A stretch of DNA of 64,000 bases from Gammaproteobacteria bacterium (lineage in GTDB: Bacteria > Pseudomonadota > Gammaproteobacteria > UBA4575). The position numbers were made by a program, and so were the translations under genes. Numbering within the stretch: position 1 is the first letter of the stretch; each line of letters starts with the position of its first letter. Under the pieces are notes generated by a model, which worked only from the letters and a program-made list of their open reading frames with translations, had not been told where the DNA came from and made no database searches. The DNA is taken from contig CBDCUI010000009.1 of assembly GCA_965222615.1 (NCBI GenBank), positions 704,001-768,000 of the forward strand, in the 5' to 3' direction. Positions 1,705-16,634 of the stretch are shown piece after piece.

Positions 1705-2637
1705 ATGAGTGCACATACTAATAATAGTTCTAATTACCCAGCTTATATCGGTCGTTTCGCGCCCTCACCCACTGGCCCTTTGCACTATGGCTCGCTCCTA
1801 GCAGCCGTAGCTAGCTATCTTCAAGCCAAAAAGAACAGTGGTCAATGGTTAATCCGCATCGAAGATATAGACCCTCCACGTGAAGTGCTCGGTGCAACAG
1901 ATAATATCTTACGGACTTTAGAGCTCTATCAATTTGAATGGGACCAACGGCCACTATATCAATCTACACGCCCAGACGCTTATCATGAAAAACTTAATAA
2001 ATTAAAAGAGAAAAGCTTGCTATATGCTTGTTCTTGCTCGCGTAAACAAATTGGAGAATTCGCAAAAGATTCTGTTTTAGGTAAACGCTATCCCGGTACT
2101 TGTAGCAATAAAACGTTAGATGTAGACCCATTAAATTATAATTTAAGATTGCGCACTTCGAACCAAACTATTCATTTTATTGATGCAGTATATGGACAAC
2201 AGACCGCAACAATTTTTAAAGATATTGGTGATTTTGTAATTTATCGAAAGAATGACTTACCCACGTATGCACTTGCTGCCAGCGTTGATGATGCCTATCA
2301 AGGTATAACCGAAGTTGTGCGCGGCCATGATTTACTTGCATTTACCCCACTACAAATCTACCTGTGCAAAATATTGCAATTACCCATACCAAAATTTCTT
2401 CACATTCCAATCGTAATTGATGAAAACGGATGCAAACTAAGCAAACAATCAAACGCAGATGCTTTATCTAAAAACAACTGTACTAGTATGTTACTAAAAG
2501 CATTGAATGACTTAGGCCAGAAGACTCCTAAAATTCTTGATGATGAGAATTTAGAACAAATATGGAACTGGGCAATACAACATTGGGATATTACCAAGAT
2601 CCCTCGCTCAAAAACTCTAACACTTAATGATATTTAA
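1705..2637 (+). CDS. gluQ: Glutamyl-Q tRNA(Asp) synthetase
   Basis: GRFAPSPTGPLHYGS, RIEDIDPPRE, CSCSR, KLSKQ; no anticodon domain; downstream of dksA. Confidence 0.93.
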   Translation: MSAHTNNSSNYPAYIGRFAPSPTGPLHYGSLLAAVASYLQAKKNSGQWLIRIEDIDPPREVLGATDNILRTLELYQFEWDQRPLYQSTRPDAYHEKLNKLKEKSLLYACSCSRKQIGEFAKDSVLGKRYPGTCSNKTLDVDPLNYNLRLRTSNQTIHFIDAVYGQQTATIFKDIGDFVIYRKNDLPTYALAASVDDAYQGITEVVRGHDLLAFTPLQIYLCKILQLPIPKFLHIPIVIDENGCKLSKQSNADALSKNNCTSMLLKALNDLGQKTPKILDDENLEQIWNWAIQHWDITKIPRSKTLTLNDI

Positions 2638-2652
2638 TTAAGTGCACTCAAT

Positions 2653-2680
2653 AAAACGGCCGTACTGAGACGGCCGTTTT
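2653..2680. terminator. Bidirectional intrinsic terminator
   Basis: aaaacggccgt-actgag-acggccgtttt between convergent genes. Confidence 0.8.
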
Positions 2681-2710
2681 CTGTACTAGTTATTAGAAGT
2701 AAGCTAATGT

Positions 2711-2935
2711 TTATTCGCCATCCCCAGCCTTACTCTTATCCCACTCCCATGGCTCTTCTTTGGCAATCGTAAAAAAGATCCAAAAGTTGCCAATCAGCAT
2801 AATGACAAATAACACCGCTGCACCCAGCGCCCAAAGTGGCTCACGAAAATGCTCATCAAAATTCACAAAATTGATAATGGCAAAAATCGCAATGGTCCAA
2901 AGTACCATTACGGCTAAAGCTTGAAGTGTGCGCAT
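2711..2935 (-). CDS. Small two-TM membrane protein, last gene of the monooxygenase cluster
   Basis: 74 aa, two hydrophobic helices, GGAGG RBS, 32 bp after the reductase. Confidence 0.75.
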   Translation of the reverse strand: MRTLQALAVMVLWTIAIFAIINFVNFDEHFREPLWALGAAVLFVIMLIGNFWIFFTIAKEEPWEWDKSKAGDGE

Positions 2936-2967
2936 ATACGCCTCCTATACTTTCTAATATCTATTCT

Positions 2968-4059
2968 TTACTTTCGCCCACCGGGCATCGAACTCGCGTC
3001 TAAGAATTTATCAAAGAAGATATCATCCTTGTTCATGCCTTGATCTACCATAACTTCTATAGCTGCATCAATCATGGGCGGAGGACCACATAGATAACCC
3101 TGTGCCTCGCCTAGGGCTAGTTTACCAGTATCTACGTAAGCTGACTTCAAATAATCGGTTACCAGGCCGGTAGCCCCTTTCCAATCACTGCCTTCCGGTT
3201 CCATGTTCAGTACAGGCACAAACTCAAAGGAGTGATTCTGATTCCATTTTGAGCCAATTTCAGCCATTTCCTCTAAACAATACAAATCGTCTTGGGTACG
3301 CGCACCAAACAAAAACAAACAATCTCGCGTAACTTGGTCATTTACAGCCGATTCTAAAATCGCCTTAATTGAGCTCACTCCACTACCCCCTGCAATACAT
3401 ACTATATGCGATGCATCAGGACGTAACCAAAAATGTCCAAATGGCCCTGAGACAGTTACCTTTTCGCCAGTGCGATCTTCTGCAAATAACCATTCTGTAA
3501 ATTCGCCGCCAGGCACCAAACGTACAAAAAATGTCATCTCATCTTTGGCTTCATTTTCAGGTGCTTTAGCAAAGGAATAAGAACGTGGAGCACTTAGACC
3601 ATCGATACTTATCTCAGCATATTGACCAGCGACGCCACTACGTTCTGGCAAAGAATATTCTGACTTTATGACGATCTCTTTAATGTCGTGAGTTAAGTCG
3701 TTAATCCGTGTAAATGTGCCTTCAAAAGAAACAACTTGATGTGCATGCTCAGAATCTTCTAACTCAACTTCAACTTCTACATCGCTTTTTAGGGCGGTCT
3801 GGCATGCTAAGATCATTCCATCCTTAAGCTGGTCTGGATCTAGTACATAGGAAAAATCGGTTAACGCCTTGATCTTGCCATCCTTAAGCTTACATTTACA
3901 AGTTGCACAGCTACCTACTCGGCAATCATGTGGCCAAGGTATGCCAAGTTCTAAAGCAGCATTTAAGAGATTATCACCAGCCTTTACGGTGACTTTATGT
4001 TCGCCAGTATTAATACTGGCCTGCCAGTCTTTTTTACTACTACCAAATAATCCAAACAT
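2968..4059 (-). CDS. XylA-type monooxygenase reductase ([2Fe-2S]/FAD/NAD(P)H domains)
   Basis: CRVGSCATC...LAC 2Fe-2S motif; RSYS FAD motif; AGGSG and YLCGPPPM NAD motifs. Confidence 0.92.
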   Translation of the reverse strand: MFGLFGSSKKDWQASINTGEHKVTVKAGDNLLNAALELGIPWPHDCRVGSCATCKCKLKDGKIKALTDFSYVLDPDQLKDGMILACQTALKSDVEVEVELEDSEHAHQVVSFEGTFTRINDLTHDIKEIVIKSEYSLPERSGVAGQYAEISIDGLSAPRSYSFAKAPENEAKDEMTFFVRLVPGGEFTEWLFAEDRTGEKVTVSGPFGHFWLRPDASHIVCIAGGSGVSSIKAILESAVNDQVTRDCLFLFGARTQDDLYCLEEMAEIGSKWNQNHSFEFVPVLNMEPEGSDWKGATGLVTDYLKSAYVDTGKLALGEAQGYLCGPPPMIDAAIEVMVDQGMNKDDIFFDKFLDASSMPGGRK

Positions 4060-4132
4060 AAAAATTAGTACCCACTGGCATCCACTCCAGTGAAAGAACG
4101 TTTAGCTATAAGTTTTAAGAGCTACAGCTCTA

Positions 4133-4786
4133 CTAGGCGTTTATTGCAATGCCTCGTAAAGTCCCTGACTTAACATCCTCAGCTGTTGGTAGACACTCAA
4201 ATGGATTGAGCTTTTCTTTACTTGTTGATGGATGTGCCTTCACCTTATTGTACCAACTATTCACTCCCTGGCGCGAACTGATTAAATCTCCTGCTCCAAG
4301 TATTTCGATACAATTGCAACAAGCAGACCAATGAATATCTGCCAGAGAAAATTCACCGCAAATGAAATCACCTTTCTTAGGTGGATTTTGAACTTGCTGT
4401 TCAAATCCATCAAGAAGTGTGGCTAAAGCTGATTTATCGATATTTTCTCCAAGCAATAGCTGAACTTTTTCAGTCGCAATACCTGCCCACTGATACATTA
4501 CTGCACGAATTACACCATTTCGTGGAACAAGTGAAGGTCCAAATCCCTTGTCATCAAGATAAGACATTACTGCACCTGTTCCATACACCACAAAATCTGT
4601 ATCTTGAAGTACTGGCGCAATACCATAAGGAGACTTTGATAAAAACTCGCTATCATCCTCACCGCTGATGATCTTAGTCTCCATATCTATGCCTTTTTCA
4701 CCTGCTGTTTGCAAACATTTACCTGTGTTTGGACAAGCTGGGTGTCCACTTAATATCATTTTTGTTCTTAGTTGATCTCCAATCAT
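4133..4786 (-). CDS. Glutathione S-transferase family protein
   Basis: N-terminal CPNT; SPYGIAPVL cis-Pro region; FICGEFSLADI C-domain motif. Confidence 0.85.
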   Translation of the reverse strand: MIGDQLRTKMILSGHPACPNTGKCLQTAGEKGIDMETKIISGEDDSEFLSKSPYGIAPVLQDTDFVVYGTGAVMSYLDDKGFGPSLVPRNGVIRAVMYQWAGIATEKVQLLLGENIDKSALATLLDGFEQQVQNPPKKGDFICGEFSLADIHWSACCNCIEILGAGDLISSRQGVNSWYNKVKAHPSTSKEKLNPFECLPTAEDVKSGTLRGIAINA

Positions 4787-4924
4787 ATCTCCCCCTAACT
4801 GACAAGTCTCATTAGGCTAGTTGTAAAATTTAAAAATTATTACCAAAGACAATCTCAAACTAGATTTTCTCAGCACTTAATATCAAAAAGCAATTTAGTT
4901 ATTTTGATACGTAATTAAATTTAG

Positions 4925-5104
4925 TTAGTCTTGGATTTTCAAAGCTCCAGAGGGGCATTTAGAAACTGTTTCACGAATTTCAGCTTCAGGTGCAGCATCC
5001 GTGTCAATTACAAATTGACCATCTTCTACCTTAAATACACTGGGCGAACCTTTTACACACTCGCCAGCGTGGCTACAAACATCGGCATCGTATGTTACTT
5101 TCAT
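4925..5104 (-). CDS. Small mono-cluster Fe-S ferredoxin (YjdI/Fer4_19-like), 59 aa, absent from the ORF track
   Basis: Manual translation MKVTYDADVCSHAGECVKGSPSVFKVEDGQFVIDTDAAPEAEIRETVSKCPSGALKIQD*; CxHxxxC...CPSGAL; AGGAG RBS. Confidence 0.85.
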   Translation of the reverse strand: MKVTYDADVCSHAGECVKGSPSVFKVEDGQFVIDTDAAPEAEIRETVSKCPSGALKIQD

Positions 5105-5215
5105 TCTTCTGACTCCTCTTTTTGTGTTGTCATTATCTTATTTTTTAATGCTCAGTTCACTGATTTAGATTACTATATTGCCGCTTTTTTACAATTTTTT
5201 ATAGATGTTTTTGAC

Positions 5216-5261
5216 AAAAAAAGCCCCTATTCTCGGCATCTGCAGAGAATAAGGGCGGTAG
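5216..5261 (-). terminator. Intrinsic terminator after the monooxygenase gene
   Basis: Minus strand gcccttattctc...gagaataggggc followed by a T-run. Confidence 0.75.
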
Positions 5262-5282
5262 GGGGTTGGCTTCGCTAGGGGG

Positions 5283-6425
5283 CTATGCGTAGCCTGCTTG
5301 TTGATTCATCTTCGCTGCGATCTTTAACTCGCCTTCACTCGCCATCTCGTCATCCCACTTTGCCAGCTGTTGCTTCATGTAGCTGTGAAATACCGGTGGT
5401 AATAGGCCTAAGGCAAATAAGGTGAAGTACCCGCGCCCACAATTCGGCGCCCCCACTTCATCCAGCTCCCAAAAATGCGTCTCGCCGCGATCATGATGGT
5501 CGGCTTGCCGGCCGATCTCGATGAAAAACCAGCTGGTAAACGCTGTGCTGTTGTCCCAGCTATGCCGATAGTCGATCGGTTGCCCTTTCTCGCGGATCAA
5601 CCCATAGTGCTCTAAATAGTTCAGCACTTCCAGCTCGAAGTTGGAGATGATCCACACCCCCGCTAAACACAGCATGCCGATCCATCCCCCAACAAACCAA
5701 AACAAAAATAGCGTCGGTAGCGCCATGAAGTACCCCCGTATCCAGCGGTTTTGCCAGCTTAAAAATGGTGCGCCTAAGCGCTCCAGGCGTTGCTTTTCCA
5801 TCATGAATAGAAATTTGCTTTGCCCTAACCCACAGATCGGGTAGTGCGCATACATGCTGCGCCCGCGCGGGGCCGTCGCCGGGTCGTCTTGATGCCCCAA
5901 CTCTAGATGGTGGTTGTACACATGTGCATAGCAAAAGTGTGCCTTGCCACTTAAGGCCATCATCCAGCGTGAAATCACGAAGCTAAAGCCTTTGGTGTGC
6001 GCCAGCTCGTGCCCATAGATGATGCCGATACCGGCAAAGATCCCGGTCGAGTACACCGCGCCGGCCAGTTGTGTGCCGGTGATCCCGTCTTGCACCGTTA
6101 ACCCTAAAATCTCCGTGGTGCCGATCGGCACGCCATTTACGTATTGCCAGATCCGCCACGCCAACGCCACTTGTAAGCAGATGAATACGCCTAGCATCCC
6201 GTACATGGTCCCGTTTAATAACGGCACTACGCCGTAGGTGTCGCCTTCGTCATCGACCCCCGCGCCCGGCGTCTGTGCGGTCGTTAACGTATCGACGATG
6301 ATCCCGACCCCGAGCAATACCACGCCGGTCCATACCCACGGCCCGCCCGCTAATACCCCAAACATCGCGCATAAGATTAATAACGGCGCTAAAAAATAGC
6401 GGATGTTGATTATGAATTTCTTCAT
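5283..6425 (-). CDS. Membrane non-heme diiron monooxygenase (AlkB/XylM, fatty-acid-desaturase superfamily)
   Basis: HELAH, HVYNHH, NYLEHYG and variant RQADHH boxes; XylM-like C-terminus; start MKKF with GGAGG RBS. Confidence 0.9.
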   Translation of the reverse strand: MKKFIINIRYFLAPLLILCAMFGVLAGGPWVWTGVVLLGVGIIVDTLTTAQTPGAGVDDEGDTYGVVPLLNGTMYGMLGVFICLQVALAWRIWQYVNGVPIGTTEILGLTVQDGITGTQLAGAVYSTGIFAGIGIIYGHELAHTKGFSFVISRWMMALSGKAHFCYAHVYNHHLELGHQDDPATAPRGRSMYAHYPICGLGQSKFLFMMEKQRLERLGAPFLSWQNRWIRGYFMALPTLFLFWFVGGWIGMLCLAGVWIISNFELEVLNYLEHYGLIREKGQPIDYRHSWDNSTAFTSWFFIEIGRQADHHDRGETHFWELDEVGAPNCGRGYFTLFALGLLPPVFHSYMKQQLAKWDDEMASEGELKIAAKMNQQAGYA

Positions 6426-6544
6426 CTTGGCCTCCATCAGTAAATGAAGAGAAAGATTGTGTGCCTTATTTGGTTACATAAGGCGATTATGAGAAGTCTC
6501 GATCAAGAGGGCAGACATACGCTTGCATCTTGATTAATAAGGAA

Positions 6545-6586
6545 ATTATATCACTCGGAAGTACATAAATTGTAGTATGTATTTCG
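6545..6586 (-). promoter_or_regulatory. Extended -10 promoter (TGATATAAT) with an inverted-repeat operator over the -35 region
   Basis: 6545-6553 reads TGATATAAT on minus; gaagtacata-N8-tatgtatttc at 6558-6585. Confidence 0.55.
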
Positions 6587-6686
6587 TAATATAGGGTTCG
6601 TTTACAGAACAAACTAACCCACTGATCCCCCATTGAACTGCGTTATTGTAGTTAGAAGCTTCGTCTTGCCTCAGCAAGGTTAGAAG

Positions 6687-7088
6687 CTAAGATGTTTCTT
6701 TAGAATCAAAATCTAAACATATGGAATTAATACAATATCTTAAATTTGTTGGAGCGGGACCATCTTCAAATACATGCCCTAAATGGGCTCCACATTGGCT
6801 ACATAATACTTCTGTACGGTGCATGCCTAAACTTTGGTCGGACTTCGTCGAAACACACTCTTGATTTGCTGGTTGCCAAAAGCTTGGCCACCCCGTACCG
6901 GAATCAAATTTATGCCGAGAATCAAACAAGGTAGCCTGACAACAAACACAGCGATAGAGCCCATGCTCTTTATGGTTGTAGTATTTACCACTGAACGCAG
7001 GCTCAGTACCCTTTTGCCTGCAAACATGAAATTGCTCCGGCGTTAATTGTTTACGCCACTCTTCGTCAGATTTTTTTATTTTTGTCAA
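6687..7088 (-). CDS. msrB: Peptide-methionine (R)-S-oxide reductase
   Basis: KGTEPAFSG, SGTGWPSF, HLGHVFEDGP, RYCINS. Confidence 0.96.
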   Translation of the reverse strand: MTKIKKSDEEWRKQLTPEQFHVCRQKGTEPAFSGKYYNHKEHGLYRCVCCQATLFDSRHKFDSGTGWPSFWQPANQECVSTKSDQSLGMHRTEVLCSQCGAHLGHVFEDGPAPTNLRYCINSICLDFDSKETS

Positions 7089-7126
7089 TTAGTTAGTTAA
7101 ATAGCCTAAAGTCAAATATTAGAAAG

Positions 7127-9211
7127 CTATGCACTTTCAACTGCTTTCATACTAAGTCGTATTCGACCCTGCTTATCGATTTCTAATACTTTGACTTTGA
7201 TAACGTCACCCTCTGAGAGCTCATCAGTAACATTTTCAACGCGCTCATGTGAAATTTGTGAGATATGAACCAGACCATCTTTCCCAGGCAGTACACTTAC
7301 AAAGGCACCAAAATCCATGATTTTCACGACCTTACCTTCATAGGTTTTACCAACTTCTACATCCGCAGTGATTGCCTCAATACGTCTTTTCGCATCATCA
7401 CCCGCCGCCTTATCCACCGACGCAATACGTACTACGCCTTCATCATCAATATCGATGGTAGTACCGGTTTCTTCTGTCAATGAGCGTATGGTGGCGCCTC
7501 CTTTCCCTATGACATCACGTATTTTGTCTGGATTAATTTTTAACACCGTAAATCTAGGCGCGTACTCAGACATCTCTTCACGTGGGCTGGCAATGGCCTC
7601 TTGCATCTTATCTAGTATATGCAGACGCCCTTCGCGAGCTTGCTGTAAAGCAATATCCATAATTTCTTCGGTAATGCCTTCGATCTTGATATCCATTTGT
7701 AATGCAGTAACCCCATTTCGTGTCCCCGCCACTTTGAAATCCATATCGCCCAAATGATCTTCGTCGCCAAGAATGTCGGTAAGCACGGCAAAATCTTCCC
7801 CTTCTTTTATTAGCCCCATGGCAATGCCTGCCACCGGTGCTTTCGTGGGTACACCCGCATCCATTAAGGATAAACTCGTACCACAAACACTGGCCATCGA
7901 ACTTGAACCATTCGATTCTGTAATTTCAGAAACTACACGGATCACATAGGGAAATTCTTCCTCACTGGGGACCACTGCCTGAATACCACGCTTGGCAAGT
8001 TTTCCATGTCCAATTTCACGTCGTTTTGGAGAACCTACAAAACCTGTTTCGCCTACACAGAATGGAGGAAAGTTGTAATGCAACATAAAATGATCTTTAA
8101 ATTCTCCTTCAATTGCATCAATAATCTGCGCATCTCTTCCAGTCCCCAGCGTTGTGATCACCAAGGCTTGGGTTTCACCACGGGTAAATAAGGCACTGCC
8201 ATGGGTTCGCGGCAATACACCCGTGCGAATTGTTATTGGCCGCACCATGGTCTTGTCTCGACCATCTATACGCTTTTCACCGGATAATATTCGACCCCGT
8301 ACAATTTTCTTCTCAAGTTTTTTGAAAGCACCTTGTACTTCCGCCTCACTTGGTCCTTCTTCATCATTTACTATGGCCTCAAGTAAACTAGTTCGAATCT
8401 CACCAACTTTGTCTTGGCGTTCTAACTTTTCTGCAATTTGATAGGCTTCGCCCAATTGTTGACTACATTGTGCATTAACATTATCAGCCAATGTCTCATC
8501 GGCCTCAGGGGCTTGCCAATCCCATGCTTCACAATTCACTTCAGCAGCAAATTCTTTGATTGTGTTGATAGCCGATTGAAGCTGCTCATGGCCAAACATC
8601 ACTGCACCCAGCATGACTTCTTCAGGCAGTACGTCTGCCTCAGACTCAACCATCAATACAGCACTTTGCGTTCCGGCAACCACTAGATCAAGTGCAGAAT
8701 TTTTCAACTGTGAATTACTTGGATTGAGAACATATTGATTATTAATATAGCCAACACGTGCAGCACCCATTGGCCCATTAAATGGAATACCAGACACCGC
8801 CAAGGCTGCCGAAGCACCAAGCATGGCAGGAATATCCGGATCAATATCAGTATTCATTGAAACAACGGTAGCAATTACTTGTACTTCATTGGTAAAGTCT
8901 TTCGGAAACATTGGCCTTAAAGGTCGATCAATCAGGCGGCATGTCAGTGTTTCTTTTTCGCTTGGTCGACCTTCACGTTTAAAAAATCCGCCAGGAATTT
9001 TGCCCGCGGCATAGGTTTTTTCTTGGTAGTTGACAGTTAGCGGAAAAAAATCACGACCCGGCTCGGATTCTTTACTTCCTACAACAGTTACCAAAACTGT
9101 GGTTCCTGCCATATCAACCATCACCGCACCATCTGCTTGGCGTGCAATTTCACCGGTTTCCAAAGTGACTTGGTGCTCTCCATATGAGAACGATTTTGTT
9201 ACTTTACTCAC
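7127..9211 (-). CDS. pnp: Polyribonucleotide nucleotidyltransferase
   Basis: [33 protein letters not shown]; KH and S1 domains. Confidence 0.99.
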
Positions 9212-16271: not shown

Positions 16272-16634
16272 TTAGACGTCGACAATATCACCTTTCATTG
16301 AATATAAAATGCAAAGTACTTCGTCACGTTCTTTTTGACCTACATTGTTTTTATCCAATGCAGCGAGTACGTCATCACATACAGCATTAAATTCAGTATC
16401 ATTAATATTCATGCCTCGATGTGCGGTGAGCATGTCTTGCCCAGTATACTCTTGGGGTCCACCAATACCTGAGCAGAAAAATTCCCATACCACTTGCTTG
16501 ACCTTTTCACCGTCACTATTGATATAGCGATTTTGTACTTTGGGGTTACTCGTATGATTGGCCCAAACATCCGCTACGATCTGTCTTATTTTATCGCCTC
16601 CGCCCAAACGGTCATATAAACTGGCTTCACTCAT
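16272..16634 (-). CDS. Group I truncated hemoglobin (2/2 globin)
   Basis: SLYDRLGG, GGPQEYTGQDMLTAHRGMNI with proximal His; GAGGAG RBS. Confidence 0.88.
   Translation of the reverse strand: MSEASLYDRLGGGDKIRQIVADVWANHTSNPKVQNRYINSDGEKVKQVVWEFFCSGIGGPQEYTGQDMLTAHRGMNINDTEFNAVCDDVLAALDKNNVGQKERDEVLCILYSMKGDIVDV

Follow-up and report, generated by a model that had tools for sequence, protein, structure and literature searches.

A five-gene cluster encoding a predicted membrane oxygenase system

We analysed a 64,000-nucleotide stretch of a gammaproteobacterial genome of the GTDB lineage UBA4575 (assembly GCA_965222615.1, contig CBDCUI010000009.1, forward-strand positions 704,001 to 768,000), hereafter the window, and within it a cluster of five co-directional minus-strand open reading frames (ORFs) at positions 2711-6437, which encode a membrane hydroxylase that we call HYD and four candidate partner proteins. 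The cluster is bounded by gluQ (1705-2637, +) and msrB (6687-7088, -). We refer to this genome as G000 and to the contig as C9; other genomes, contigs and loci carry G, C and L numbers. The features of the cluster are:

5283-6425, minus strand: HYD, an AlkB/XylM-fold integral-membrane diiron oxygenase, assigned from PF00487, AlkB matches in the PDB, the predicted fold and the histidine boxes
4925-5104, minus strand: FDX, a 59-residue single-cluster ferredoxin (Fer4_19, PF06902, E 3.6e-18), a putative extra electron carrier
4133-4786, minus strand: a glutathione S-transferase (GST)-like protein of 217 residues (GST_N_3, E 2.8e-10) with a non-canonical G-site (Gly69 for Glu; Cys18 conserved)
2968-4059, minus strand: RED, a XylA-type NAD(P)H reductase of 363 residues, with an N-terminal plant-type 2Fe-2S domain and an FAD/NAD FNR module
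2711-2935, minus strand: TM2, a 74-residue protein with two predicted transmembrane segments, a putative accessory membrane partner conserved in position in relatives
5215-6442, no strand: a segment with a second copy at another genomic site, comprising the HYD gene but none of its partners, found by blastn of window 2601-6700 against the genome

The original prediction, made from the DNA letters alone, had described five co-directional genes between msrB and gluQ lacking a rubredoxin and dehydrogenases. The ORF map agrees, and Pfam and NCBIfam found no rubredoxin, alcohol dehydrogenase or aldehyde dehydrogenase among the five gene products. HYD is 380 residues long if read from the ATG at 6425 and 384 if read from an upstream ATG at 6437 (ORF 5283-6437); position 6425 is probably the start codon, because it is preceded at 8 nt by a GGAG and coincides with the start of the second genomic copy. 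TM2 has no Pfam or NCBIfam match, and is homologous to an 88-residue ORF (U88) downstream of a paralogous hydroxylase elsewhere in the genome (45% over 40 residues, E 2e-12). The expectation that the genes would remain clustered across genomes was borne out, as the same order recurs in relatives; this recurrence, together with the TM2 homologue beside the paralogous hydroxylase, argues that the five-gene arrangement is not due to chance. A promoter and terminator scan of 2500-7200 yielded 3 promoter-like sites against 9.5 expected and no usable operon signal.

HYD forms a separate clade with a glutamine at one iron-ligand position

HYD contains an FA_desaturase domain (PF00487, E 1.3e-27) and matches the solved AlkB chains 8sbb_A (E 1.8e-24) and 8f6t_A (E 1.6e-23) in phmmer searches. 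An AlphaFold model built from a 29-row alignment (pLDDT 80.8, pTM 0.85) resembles these rubredoxin (AlkG)-dependent AlkB structures over its whole length (Foldseek TM 0.73), and they were the sole two matches with E <= 0.001 among the 266 listed. Sequence identity to them is nevertheless only ~24-30%, and the cluster has no rubredoxin.

The histidine boxes of HYD read HELAH, HVYNHH, NYLEHYG and QADHH. The hydroxylase-specific NYxEHYG motif is kept, as NYLEHYG or NYMEHYG, in all nine family rows of our alignment, and with it the ligand glutamate. Eight of the nine canonical iron-ligand histidines are also kept. The ninth, at position 311, is Gln in 8/9 family rows and invariably Gln at the equivalent position of a sister subfamily (12/12 rows), against His in 112/113 other representatives and in all eight named AlkB, XylM-type and reductase-linked references. 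In FtAlkB, the equivalent residue, His311, ligates Fe2, the iron closer to the substrate methyl (PMC10113152). XylM departs at a different Fe2 ligand, with Gln replacing the Glu of NYxEHYG.

A word-indexed search gave 1247 proteins with E <= 0.001 among 8000 candidates scored, the best 120 of which are 71-94% identical to HYD. Public names, where assigned to these relatives, read 'alkane 1-monooxygenase' at JGI and 'fatty acid desaturase' at NCBI. An exhaustive search of representatives at 50% identity returned one full-length match at 627 bits (71%) plus fragments, with the next at <=185 bits (30-37% identity); because of this fall in score, we regard the clade as tight and isolated. We then placed HYD in a tree of 130 rows (113 unnamed representatives, nine family rows and eight named references; quick LG+G4, no bootstraps). 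The HYD family forms one clade (SH-aLRT 100) with a stem 0.65 changes per column long. This clade is weakly sister to XylM (SH-aLRT 87), not inside the XylM clade, and separate both from rubredoxin-type AlkB (Rhodococcus, Marinobacter, Methylibium) and from the class with a fused or adjacent reductase. On this phylogeny, HYD is a member of an uncharacterised clade outside the known alkane and xylene clades, in line with the original prediction of an undescribed oxygenase system.

The partners include a XylA-like reductase and a GST-like protein with an atypical G-site

RED has the Pfam domains Fer2, FAD_binding_6 and NAD_binding_1, in the same order as in XylA from the TOL plasmid pWW0, to which it is 39% identical over 342 residues (E 6e-84), so that its description as XylA-like holds. 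Its best NCBIfam rows, BenC, MmoC and AntC, all fall under their cut-offs. FDX is 64-95% conserved among relatives.

The GST-like protein matches GST_N_3, GST_N_2 and GST_N, with GST_C_3 slightly below cut-off, and 59 GST-family chains in the PDB with E <= 0.01; both the thioredoxin-like N-domain and the helical C-domain are present. In GSTs, the gamma-glutamyl end of glutathione is bound by a Glu-Ser pair in the G-site, a pair regarded as defining. When aligned to the phi-class GST 9sn8, the protein has 'ygt' opposite 'fes', and the canonical Glu is replaced by Gly69 in 27/27 aligned GST-like sequences. Its use of glutathione therefore cannot be assumed. Cys18 is present in 21/21 A-type orthologues (those at loci arranged like the window cluster) and is conserved only there, and an ADIHW motif is near-invariant, with H and W invariant and A, D and I in >=90% of rows. 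Glutathione capture of a reactive product, which had been proposed as the core logic of the cluster, fares poorly on these grounds, and GST-like genes occur in only 4/45 long metagenome loci of the sister subfamily.

Taken as a pair, HYD and RED most resemble XylMA, in which a membrane His-rich diiron hydroxylase is likewise served by a single Fer2-FNR reductase. HYD is 30% identical to XylM, both depart from AlkB at one Fe2 ligand position, and methyl-group hydroxylation, established for XylMA, is what we propose for HYD. The differences are also clear. HYD lies in its own clade on a long stem, keeps the Glu of NYLEHYG where XylM has Gln, and has Gln at the first His of the XylM third box. 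Whereas pWW0 and an Alteromonas plasmid carry benzyl-alcohol and benzaldehyde dehydrogenases, none lies at the window cluster or its mapped relatives. HYD has extra ferredoxin, GST-like and two-transmembrane partners and a link to mtoX, described below. A second comparison is the ferr_ferrR_AlkB class (Nie 2014 and Williams 2021, as cited in the text of PMC8918992), which shares the AlkB fold and, independent of rubredoxin, depends on an FNR-type reductase. Its members include the best plasmid matches to HYD (32% identity, E 5e-44), a 752-residue fusion from Polaromonas pPNAP01 and an adjacent pair from Hydrocarboniclastica. This class, however, falls elsewhere in the tree, keeps all nine histidines, and has loci that carry an alkane pathway (GMC oxidoreductase, acyl-CoA ligase, aldehyde dehydrogenase and OmpW).

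HYD co-occurs with the methanethiol oxidase gene mtoX

We compared the distribution of HYD with that of SBP56, the family of the methanethiol oxidase MtoX. A set of 41 relatives comprised G000, 24 genomes of the same family and 16 from outside it. HYD is held by 24/24 same-family genomes, a retention that spans genomes of 1.1-1.8 Mb. SBP56 is found in G000 and in 23/24 of the same-family genomes, the one miss (G018) being 77% complete. Among the 16 outside relatives, SBP56 occurs only in G036, which is also the sole outside genome with a true HYD.

We also scored 400 genomes drawn evenly from the class (G271 was not scored), calling HYD at E <= 1e-80. HYD was found in 16 genomes of 11 families and SBP56 in 45 genomes. 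SBP56 was present in 15/16 HYD holders versus 30/384 non-holders (Fisher p 8e-15, a value that overstates the association because related genomes are not independent). The lone HYD holder without SBP56, G123, is 80% complete, and ten of the 11 HYD-holding families have SBP56. The pattern persists within families. In the family of G036, HYD and SBP56 each occur in 1/8 genomes, and it is one and the same genome; in that of G294, the two HYD holders (2/7) are nested among the three SBP56 holders (3/7).

HYD and its reductase are clustered with mtoX in several lineages

HYD and a reductase gene are physically clustered with mtoX-sco1/mauG in several lineages, in four arrangements:

G036 and L181: HYD-globin-RED-MtoX-Sco1/MauG-TlpA
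G210 and G369 (1.1 Mb genomes): HYD-GST-RED-90-residue ORF-FadL-like protein (500 residues)-MtoX-Sco1/MauG-TlpA
L187, L198 and L221, inverted in L199: MtoX-Sco1-MauG-FDX, then, after ~5 kb, HYD-globin-RED
L196: HYD-globin-RED, then, after ~6 kb, MtoX

The third arrangement brings an FDX homologue next to mtoX-sco1-mauG in the metagenome loci L187, L198 and L221. Among 45 metagenome loci of the sister subfamily (each >= 8 kb), mtoX-cluster genes lie within 10 kb of the hydroxylase in seven. The conserved unit of this subfamily is HYD-globin-RED (globin 24/45, RED 25/45, FDX 20/45); in high-GC loci HYD was visible only by tblastn and was missed on ORF maps. Its named holders are Hyphomicrobium, Thiobacillus, Granulosicoccus, Acidiferrobacterales and Chromatiaceae, and Hyphomicrobium and Thiobacillus are classical dimethylsulfide (DMS) degraders. 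The original prediction had listed S-demethylation of a substrate such as DMS as one option, and it is this option that the co-occurrence and the physical clustering support.

The 500-residue ORF of the G210 cluster has the look of a FadL/TodX-type channel, as judged from an ESM Atlas feature search alone; neither it nor the 90-residue ORF has a Pfam family. FadL-like homologues lie near HYD in ~15 loci, although not in G000, and this recurrence suggests an imported substrate. The window encodes a truncated globin (16272-16634, minus strand) that is 62% identical to the cluster globin and lies 10 kb from the HYD cluster on the same strand; in other genomes the cluster globin sits between HYD and GST (or RED).

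A further set of genes recurs ahead of HYD-globin-RED in the sister subfamily (L047, L178, L179, L189, L200, L209-L222). It consists of two ORFs of ~95-100 residues, an acyl-CoA-dehydrogenase-family protein (~390-400 residues), a ~820-residue sensor and a ~205-residue response regulator, and may be a dedicated sensing module.

Sulfur and one-carbon genes of G000 and published DMS responses

G000 has three SBP56/mtoX genes (C9:591900-603000, C9:51553-52947 and C6:11590-12984). One belongs to a canonical mtoX-sco1-mauG-tlpA operon with two tlpA genes, which adjoins formate-dehydrogenase-like, pterin-dehydratase-like and Fwd-like ORFs; the neighbours were named from their translations and from homology to Pfam-scanned ORFs of L166. 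The 13.5-kb contig C6, with one mtoX copy, is a repeat of C9:44-60 kb and reflects either a genuine duplication or alternative assembly of one region.

Of the biogenic sulfur gases that escape from the ocean, DMS is the main one, and to our knowledge the enzyme that starts its breakdown is not known in many degraders. DmoAB is the flavin-dependent DMS monooxygenase of Hyphomicrobium sulfonivorans, and DmoA is a luciferase-family flavoprotein, which we take to be a member of PF00296. G000, which is 99.79% complete, contains no Bac_luciferase (PF00296) gene with E <= 0.001.

PMC6548844 reports that Methylophaga thiooxydans can use DMS for growth despite having neither dmoA nor DMS dehydrogenase, that its first DMS enzyme is unidentified, and that both are absent from all of six Methylophaga genomes. 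On DMS, mtoX was highly induced together with MDMS009_226 ('fatty acid desaturase'), MDMS009_61 ('NAD(P)H flavin reductase') and MDMS009_906, a porin of the fatty-acid-transport type (PMC6548844). Likened by description alone, the three MDMS009 genes form a striking parallel to HYD, RED and the FadL-like ORF. The original prediction had named desaturase-like enzymes as proposed DMS-oxidation candidates in marine methylotrophs. Induction on DMS bears out half of this, but the authors of PMC6548844 ascribe the induced desaturase and flavin reductase to lipid homeostasis, and the desaturase to membrane repair, not to DMS oxidation.

Our literature search found no paper joining alkane 1-monooxygenase, glutathione S-transferase and ferredoxin reductase in a gene cluster, none on AlkB-like proteins in Thiomicrospira and none on alkane 1-monooxygenase in Thioglobus. 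Among the matches listed for papers on desaturases, alkane or xylene monooxygenases or diiron enzymes, none mention DmoA or methanethiol, although prior publication is possible. The main text of PMC5739008 does not mention desaturase, alkane or ferredoxin.

Copies of HYD are kept nearly identical in different contexts

G000 has three HYD-family members. The second is the HYD gene alone at C8:93874-95099, with 99.67% nucleotide identity over 1228 nt, and the third (HYDp) is a 62% paralogue on C7. Three contexts are found repeatedly across genomes of the same family:

Context A: pnp-msrB-HYD-FDX-GST-RED-TM2-gluQ-dksA
Context B: AbgT-CDGSH-FabA-(CarH-like MerR and B12-binding regulator), then, divergent, HYD-U236
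Context C: Crp/FNR-type regulator, then, divergent, GST-GST-HYDp-U88-Yip1-ccoNOP

Neither U236 nor a 139-residue ORF has a Pfam family. Copies A and B are 99.6-100% identical in DNA in 9/9 two-copy relatives (L015-L041), or 10/10 with G000, against a HYD protein divergence of 5-20% between genomes. In two-copy genomes the GC content at third codon positions (GC3) of HYD is 0.49-0.71 versus a locus GC of 0.39-0.52; in G000 it is 0.69, versus 0.27-0.45 in neighbouring genes and a genome GC of 0.39. From these sequence comparisons, the pair is best described as one gene evolving in concert under two differing upstream regions. GC-biased gene conversion or strong codon selection could possibly account for the high GC3 and near-identity, and two such copies fit a dosage-critical catabolic enzyme. 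We rejected recent horizontal transfer as the source of the high GC, as the locus is syntenic family-wide and both copies in relatives share the high GC3.

G010, G004 and G076 (other family) have the B copy alone, yet keep pnp-msrB-FDX-GST-RED-TM2 at the A locus without HYD (L261, L262 and L263), with an FDX 66-92% identical to that of the window. Because the A locus retains the partner genes in this way, they appear to be kept as a working set and must act in trans in these genomes.

Among named species genomes, the 80 loci that matched best all belong to uncultured organisms, as metagenome-assembled or single-amplified genomes. GST adjoins HYD in 20 of these loci; a CarH-like gene is present in 38 and U236 in 24. 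The MerR and B12-binding (CarH/LitR-like) regulator of G000 lies at 6717-7700 of L013 (contig C8) and is divergent from the second HYD copy across many lineages. At L089, HYD has MerR-DCC1-DUF3429 genes on one side and two photolyase-family genes on the other. The CarH-like and photolyase neighbours suggest light control of one HYD copy.

The HYDp cluster occupies 7731-10697 of L014 (G000 C7:272000-289000), where two flanking GST-like genes and the TM2 homologue lie with it between the Crp/FNR-type regulator and the ccoNOP cbb3 oxidase genes. The intergenic region between the regulator and GST contains a 14-bp perfect palindrome, CTGACTTAAGTCAG. Read by eye, the intergenic sequence upstream of the cluster has no clear instance of the FNR box TTGAT-N4-ATCAA.

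A candidate DMS monooxygenase

From the domains, the fold, the separate clade, the conserved gene order and the co-occurrence and clustering with mtoX, we propose that the cluster encodes a XylMA-type DMS monooxygenase giving methanethiol and formaldehyde, a reading inferred from gene context to which we give even chances. By analogy with XylMA, NAD(P)H would reduce RED, first at its FAD and then at its 2Fe-2S center, and electrons would reach the His-rich diiron site of HYD either directly or via the Fer4_19 ferredoxin FDX, allowing HYD to activate O2. The most likely reaction, we propose, would be hydroxylation of a DMS methyl group, giving a hemithioacetal that would break up into methanethiol and formaldehyde. 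Methanethiol would then pass to the periplasmic methanethiol oxidase MtoX and formaldehyde to one-carbon oxidation genes. Lineage-specific accessories, namely the GST-like protein or proteins and TM2, joined in other genomes by a truncated globin and an outer-membrane channel resembling FadL, may serve in O2 supply, substrate entry or product handling. The proposed net reaction, DMS + O2 + NADH to methanethiol and formaldehyde upstream of MtoX, is that of DmoAB. HYD, however, is not homologous to DmoAB and is a membrane diiron enzyme, in a genome without a PF00296 gene.

Several observations weigh against this proposal, in addition to the non-independence of related genomes noted above. AlkB S-oxygenates thioethers, which in the case of DMS would yield DMSO (dimethyl sulfoxide), not methanethiol. 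Two-thirds of the SBP56 holders in the class sample lack HYD (30/45, a count that includes the unpublished genomes G165 and G319), and methanethiol oxidation therefore does not need HYD. In G000 itself, the nearest mtoX is ~114 kb from HYD. The His-to-Gln ligand change may affect activity. Some neighbours, namely msrB, the CarH-like regulator (38/80 loci), FabA and the L089 photolyases, point to photo-oxidative stress or lipid metabolism, although these and the cco/FNR neighbours of HYDp could just as well mean that a DMS enzyme is regulated by light and oxygen. In M. thiooxydans cells grown on DMS, no NADH-dependent DMS monooxygenase activity could be detected (PMC6548844).

The main rival is a role in lipid or oxidative stress, which we consider unlikely. 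HYD would then be a membrane-lipid stress enzyme that, fed by RED and FDX, hydroxylates or desaturates acyl chains or lipid-oxidation products; the Cys-type GST-like proteins would handle peroxidised or electrophilic lipids, and the link to MtoX would be indirect, through H2O2 from methanethiol oxidase. Front-end desaturases are the other enzymes known to have a Q-x-x-H-H third box, and much of the neighbourhood suits such a role: msrB directly upstream at the A-type locus in several families, the divergent CarH-like MerR/B12-binding regulator in 38/80 loci, the position of HYD at L089 between the MerR-DCC1-DUF3429 set and the photolyase-family genes, FabA as a conserved neighbour, and the HYD paralogue between an FNR/Crp-type regulator and ccoNOP. 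The authors of PMC6548844 read the induced M. thiooxydans desaturase in the same way. However, HYD groups with XylM/AlkB, not with acyl-lipid desaturases, and a stress role leaves unexplained why HYD is nested almost wholly in mtoX holders (15/16) and missing from most bacteria exposed to H2O2, why 1.1 Mb genomes have HYD-RED in one direction with mtoX, and why the module and mtoX were gained jointly in 1/8 genomes of one family. The FadL-like channel gene near HYD in ~15 loci also speaks against it.

We consider it quite unlikely that the substrate of HYD is a different small methylated compound or thioether that feeds into or accompanies methanethiol metabolism (such as dimethyl disulfide, methylthio-alkanes, methylmercaptopropionate or dimethylselenide), or that HYD S-oxygenates DMS to DMSO. 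The association with mtoX supports such substrates equally, as the substrate is not fixed by sequence, and AlkB-type enzymes do carry out sulfoxidation as well as methyl hydroxylation. SBP56 proteins, to judge from the family name alone, presumably bind selenium. A DMSO-forming enzyme, however, would not need to travel with mtoX, and DMS is the abundant natural methanethiol precursor for which dmoA-less degraders have no known first enzyme (PMC6548844).

That HYD is an ordinary hydrocarbon oxygenase, hydroxylating alkanes or methyl-aromatics or epoxidizing alkenes with the GST opening the epoxide, seems to us very unlikely. In none of the mapped loci does HYD adjoin a gene for an alcohol or aldehyde dehydrogenase, a CoA ligase or an epoxide pathway, although plasmid relatives have such genes, and the alkene or epoxide option of the original prediction loses its footing, as no isoprene- or styrene-type downstream genes occur in any mapped locus. 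The closest characterised relatives do oxidise alkanes or xylenes, and members are publicly annotated as 'alkane 1-monooxygenase', but the HYD clade stands apart, its stem measuring 0.65 changes per column. FadE- and FadB-like genes are present in the genome, and a GST-like gene is adjacent, but the GST-like proteins lack the G-site Glu. Retention of HYD in 24/24 family genomes, including those of 1.1-1.8 Mb, also weighs against a hydrocarbon role, and a SUP05 isolate, whose HYD content is not established, grew on none of ten hydrocarbons (PMC7368058, as given in Table 1). Two further candidates were rejected: a ubiquinone ring hydroxylase, as the genome has two Ubi-OHases over cut-off and Coq7, and a carotenoid or hopanoid enzyme, as the genome has no SQS_PSY gene.

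Returning to the proposed DMS monooxygenase, we tentatively suggest, at somewhat below even chances, a broader role: that the HYD clade is the missing primary aerobic DMS-degradation enzyme of dmoA-less bacteria, including Methylophaga-type methylotrophs, Thiobacillus, Hyphomicrobium and, among sulfur oxidisers, abundant uncultured marine and symbiotic ones. Such an enzyme would be a membrane XylMA-like diiron DMS monooxygenase with a Gln-substituted Fe2 site and two concertedly evolving copies under different regulators, one of them a putative light-sensing CarH-type repressor that would tie DMS use to light. If so, the family would provide a functional marker for DMS sinks in metagenomes, and re-annotation of the corresponding 'fatty acid desaturase' and 'alkane 1-monooxygenase' entries would keep 'alkB' from being over-counted as a sign that sulfur oxidisers and symbionts could degrade hydrocarbons. 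AlkB/XylM enzymology would likewise gain a new type of reaction, along with a diiron site in which Gln occurs naturally in place of a ligand.

An extended DksA homologue in the window

Apart from the HYD cluster, the window encodes a DksA homologue (731-1669) with an N-terminal extension of ~190 residues that is rich in Lys, Ala, Thr and Val and repetitive (KKKxA-like); its Pfam DksA_N match begins only at residue 197.

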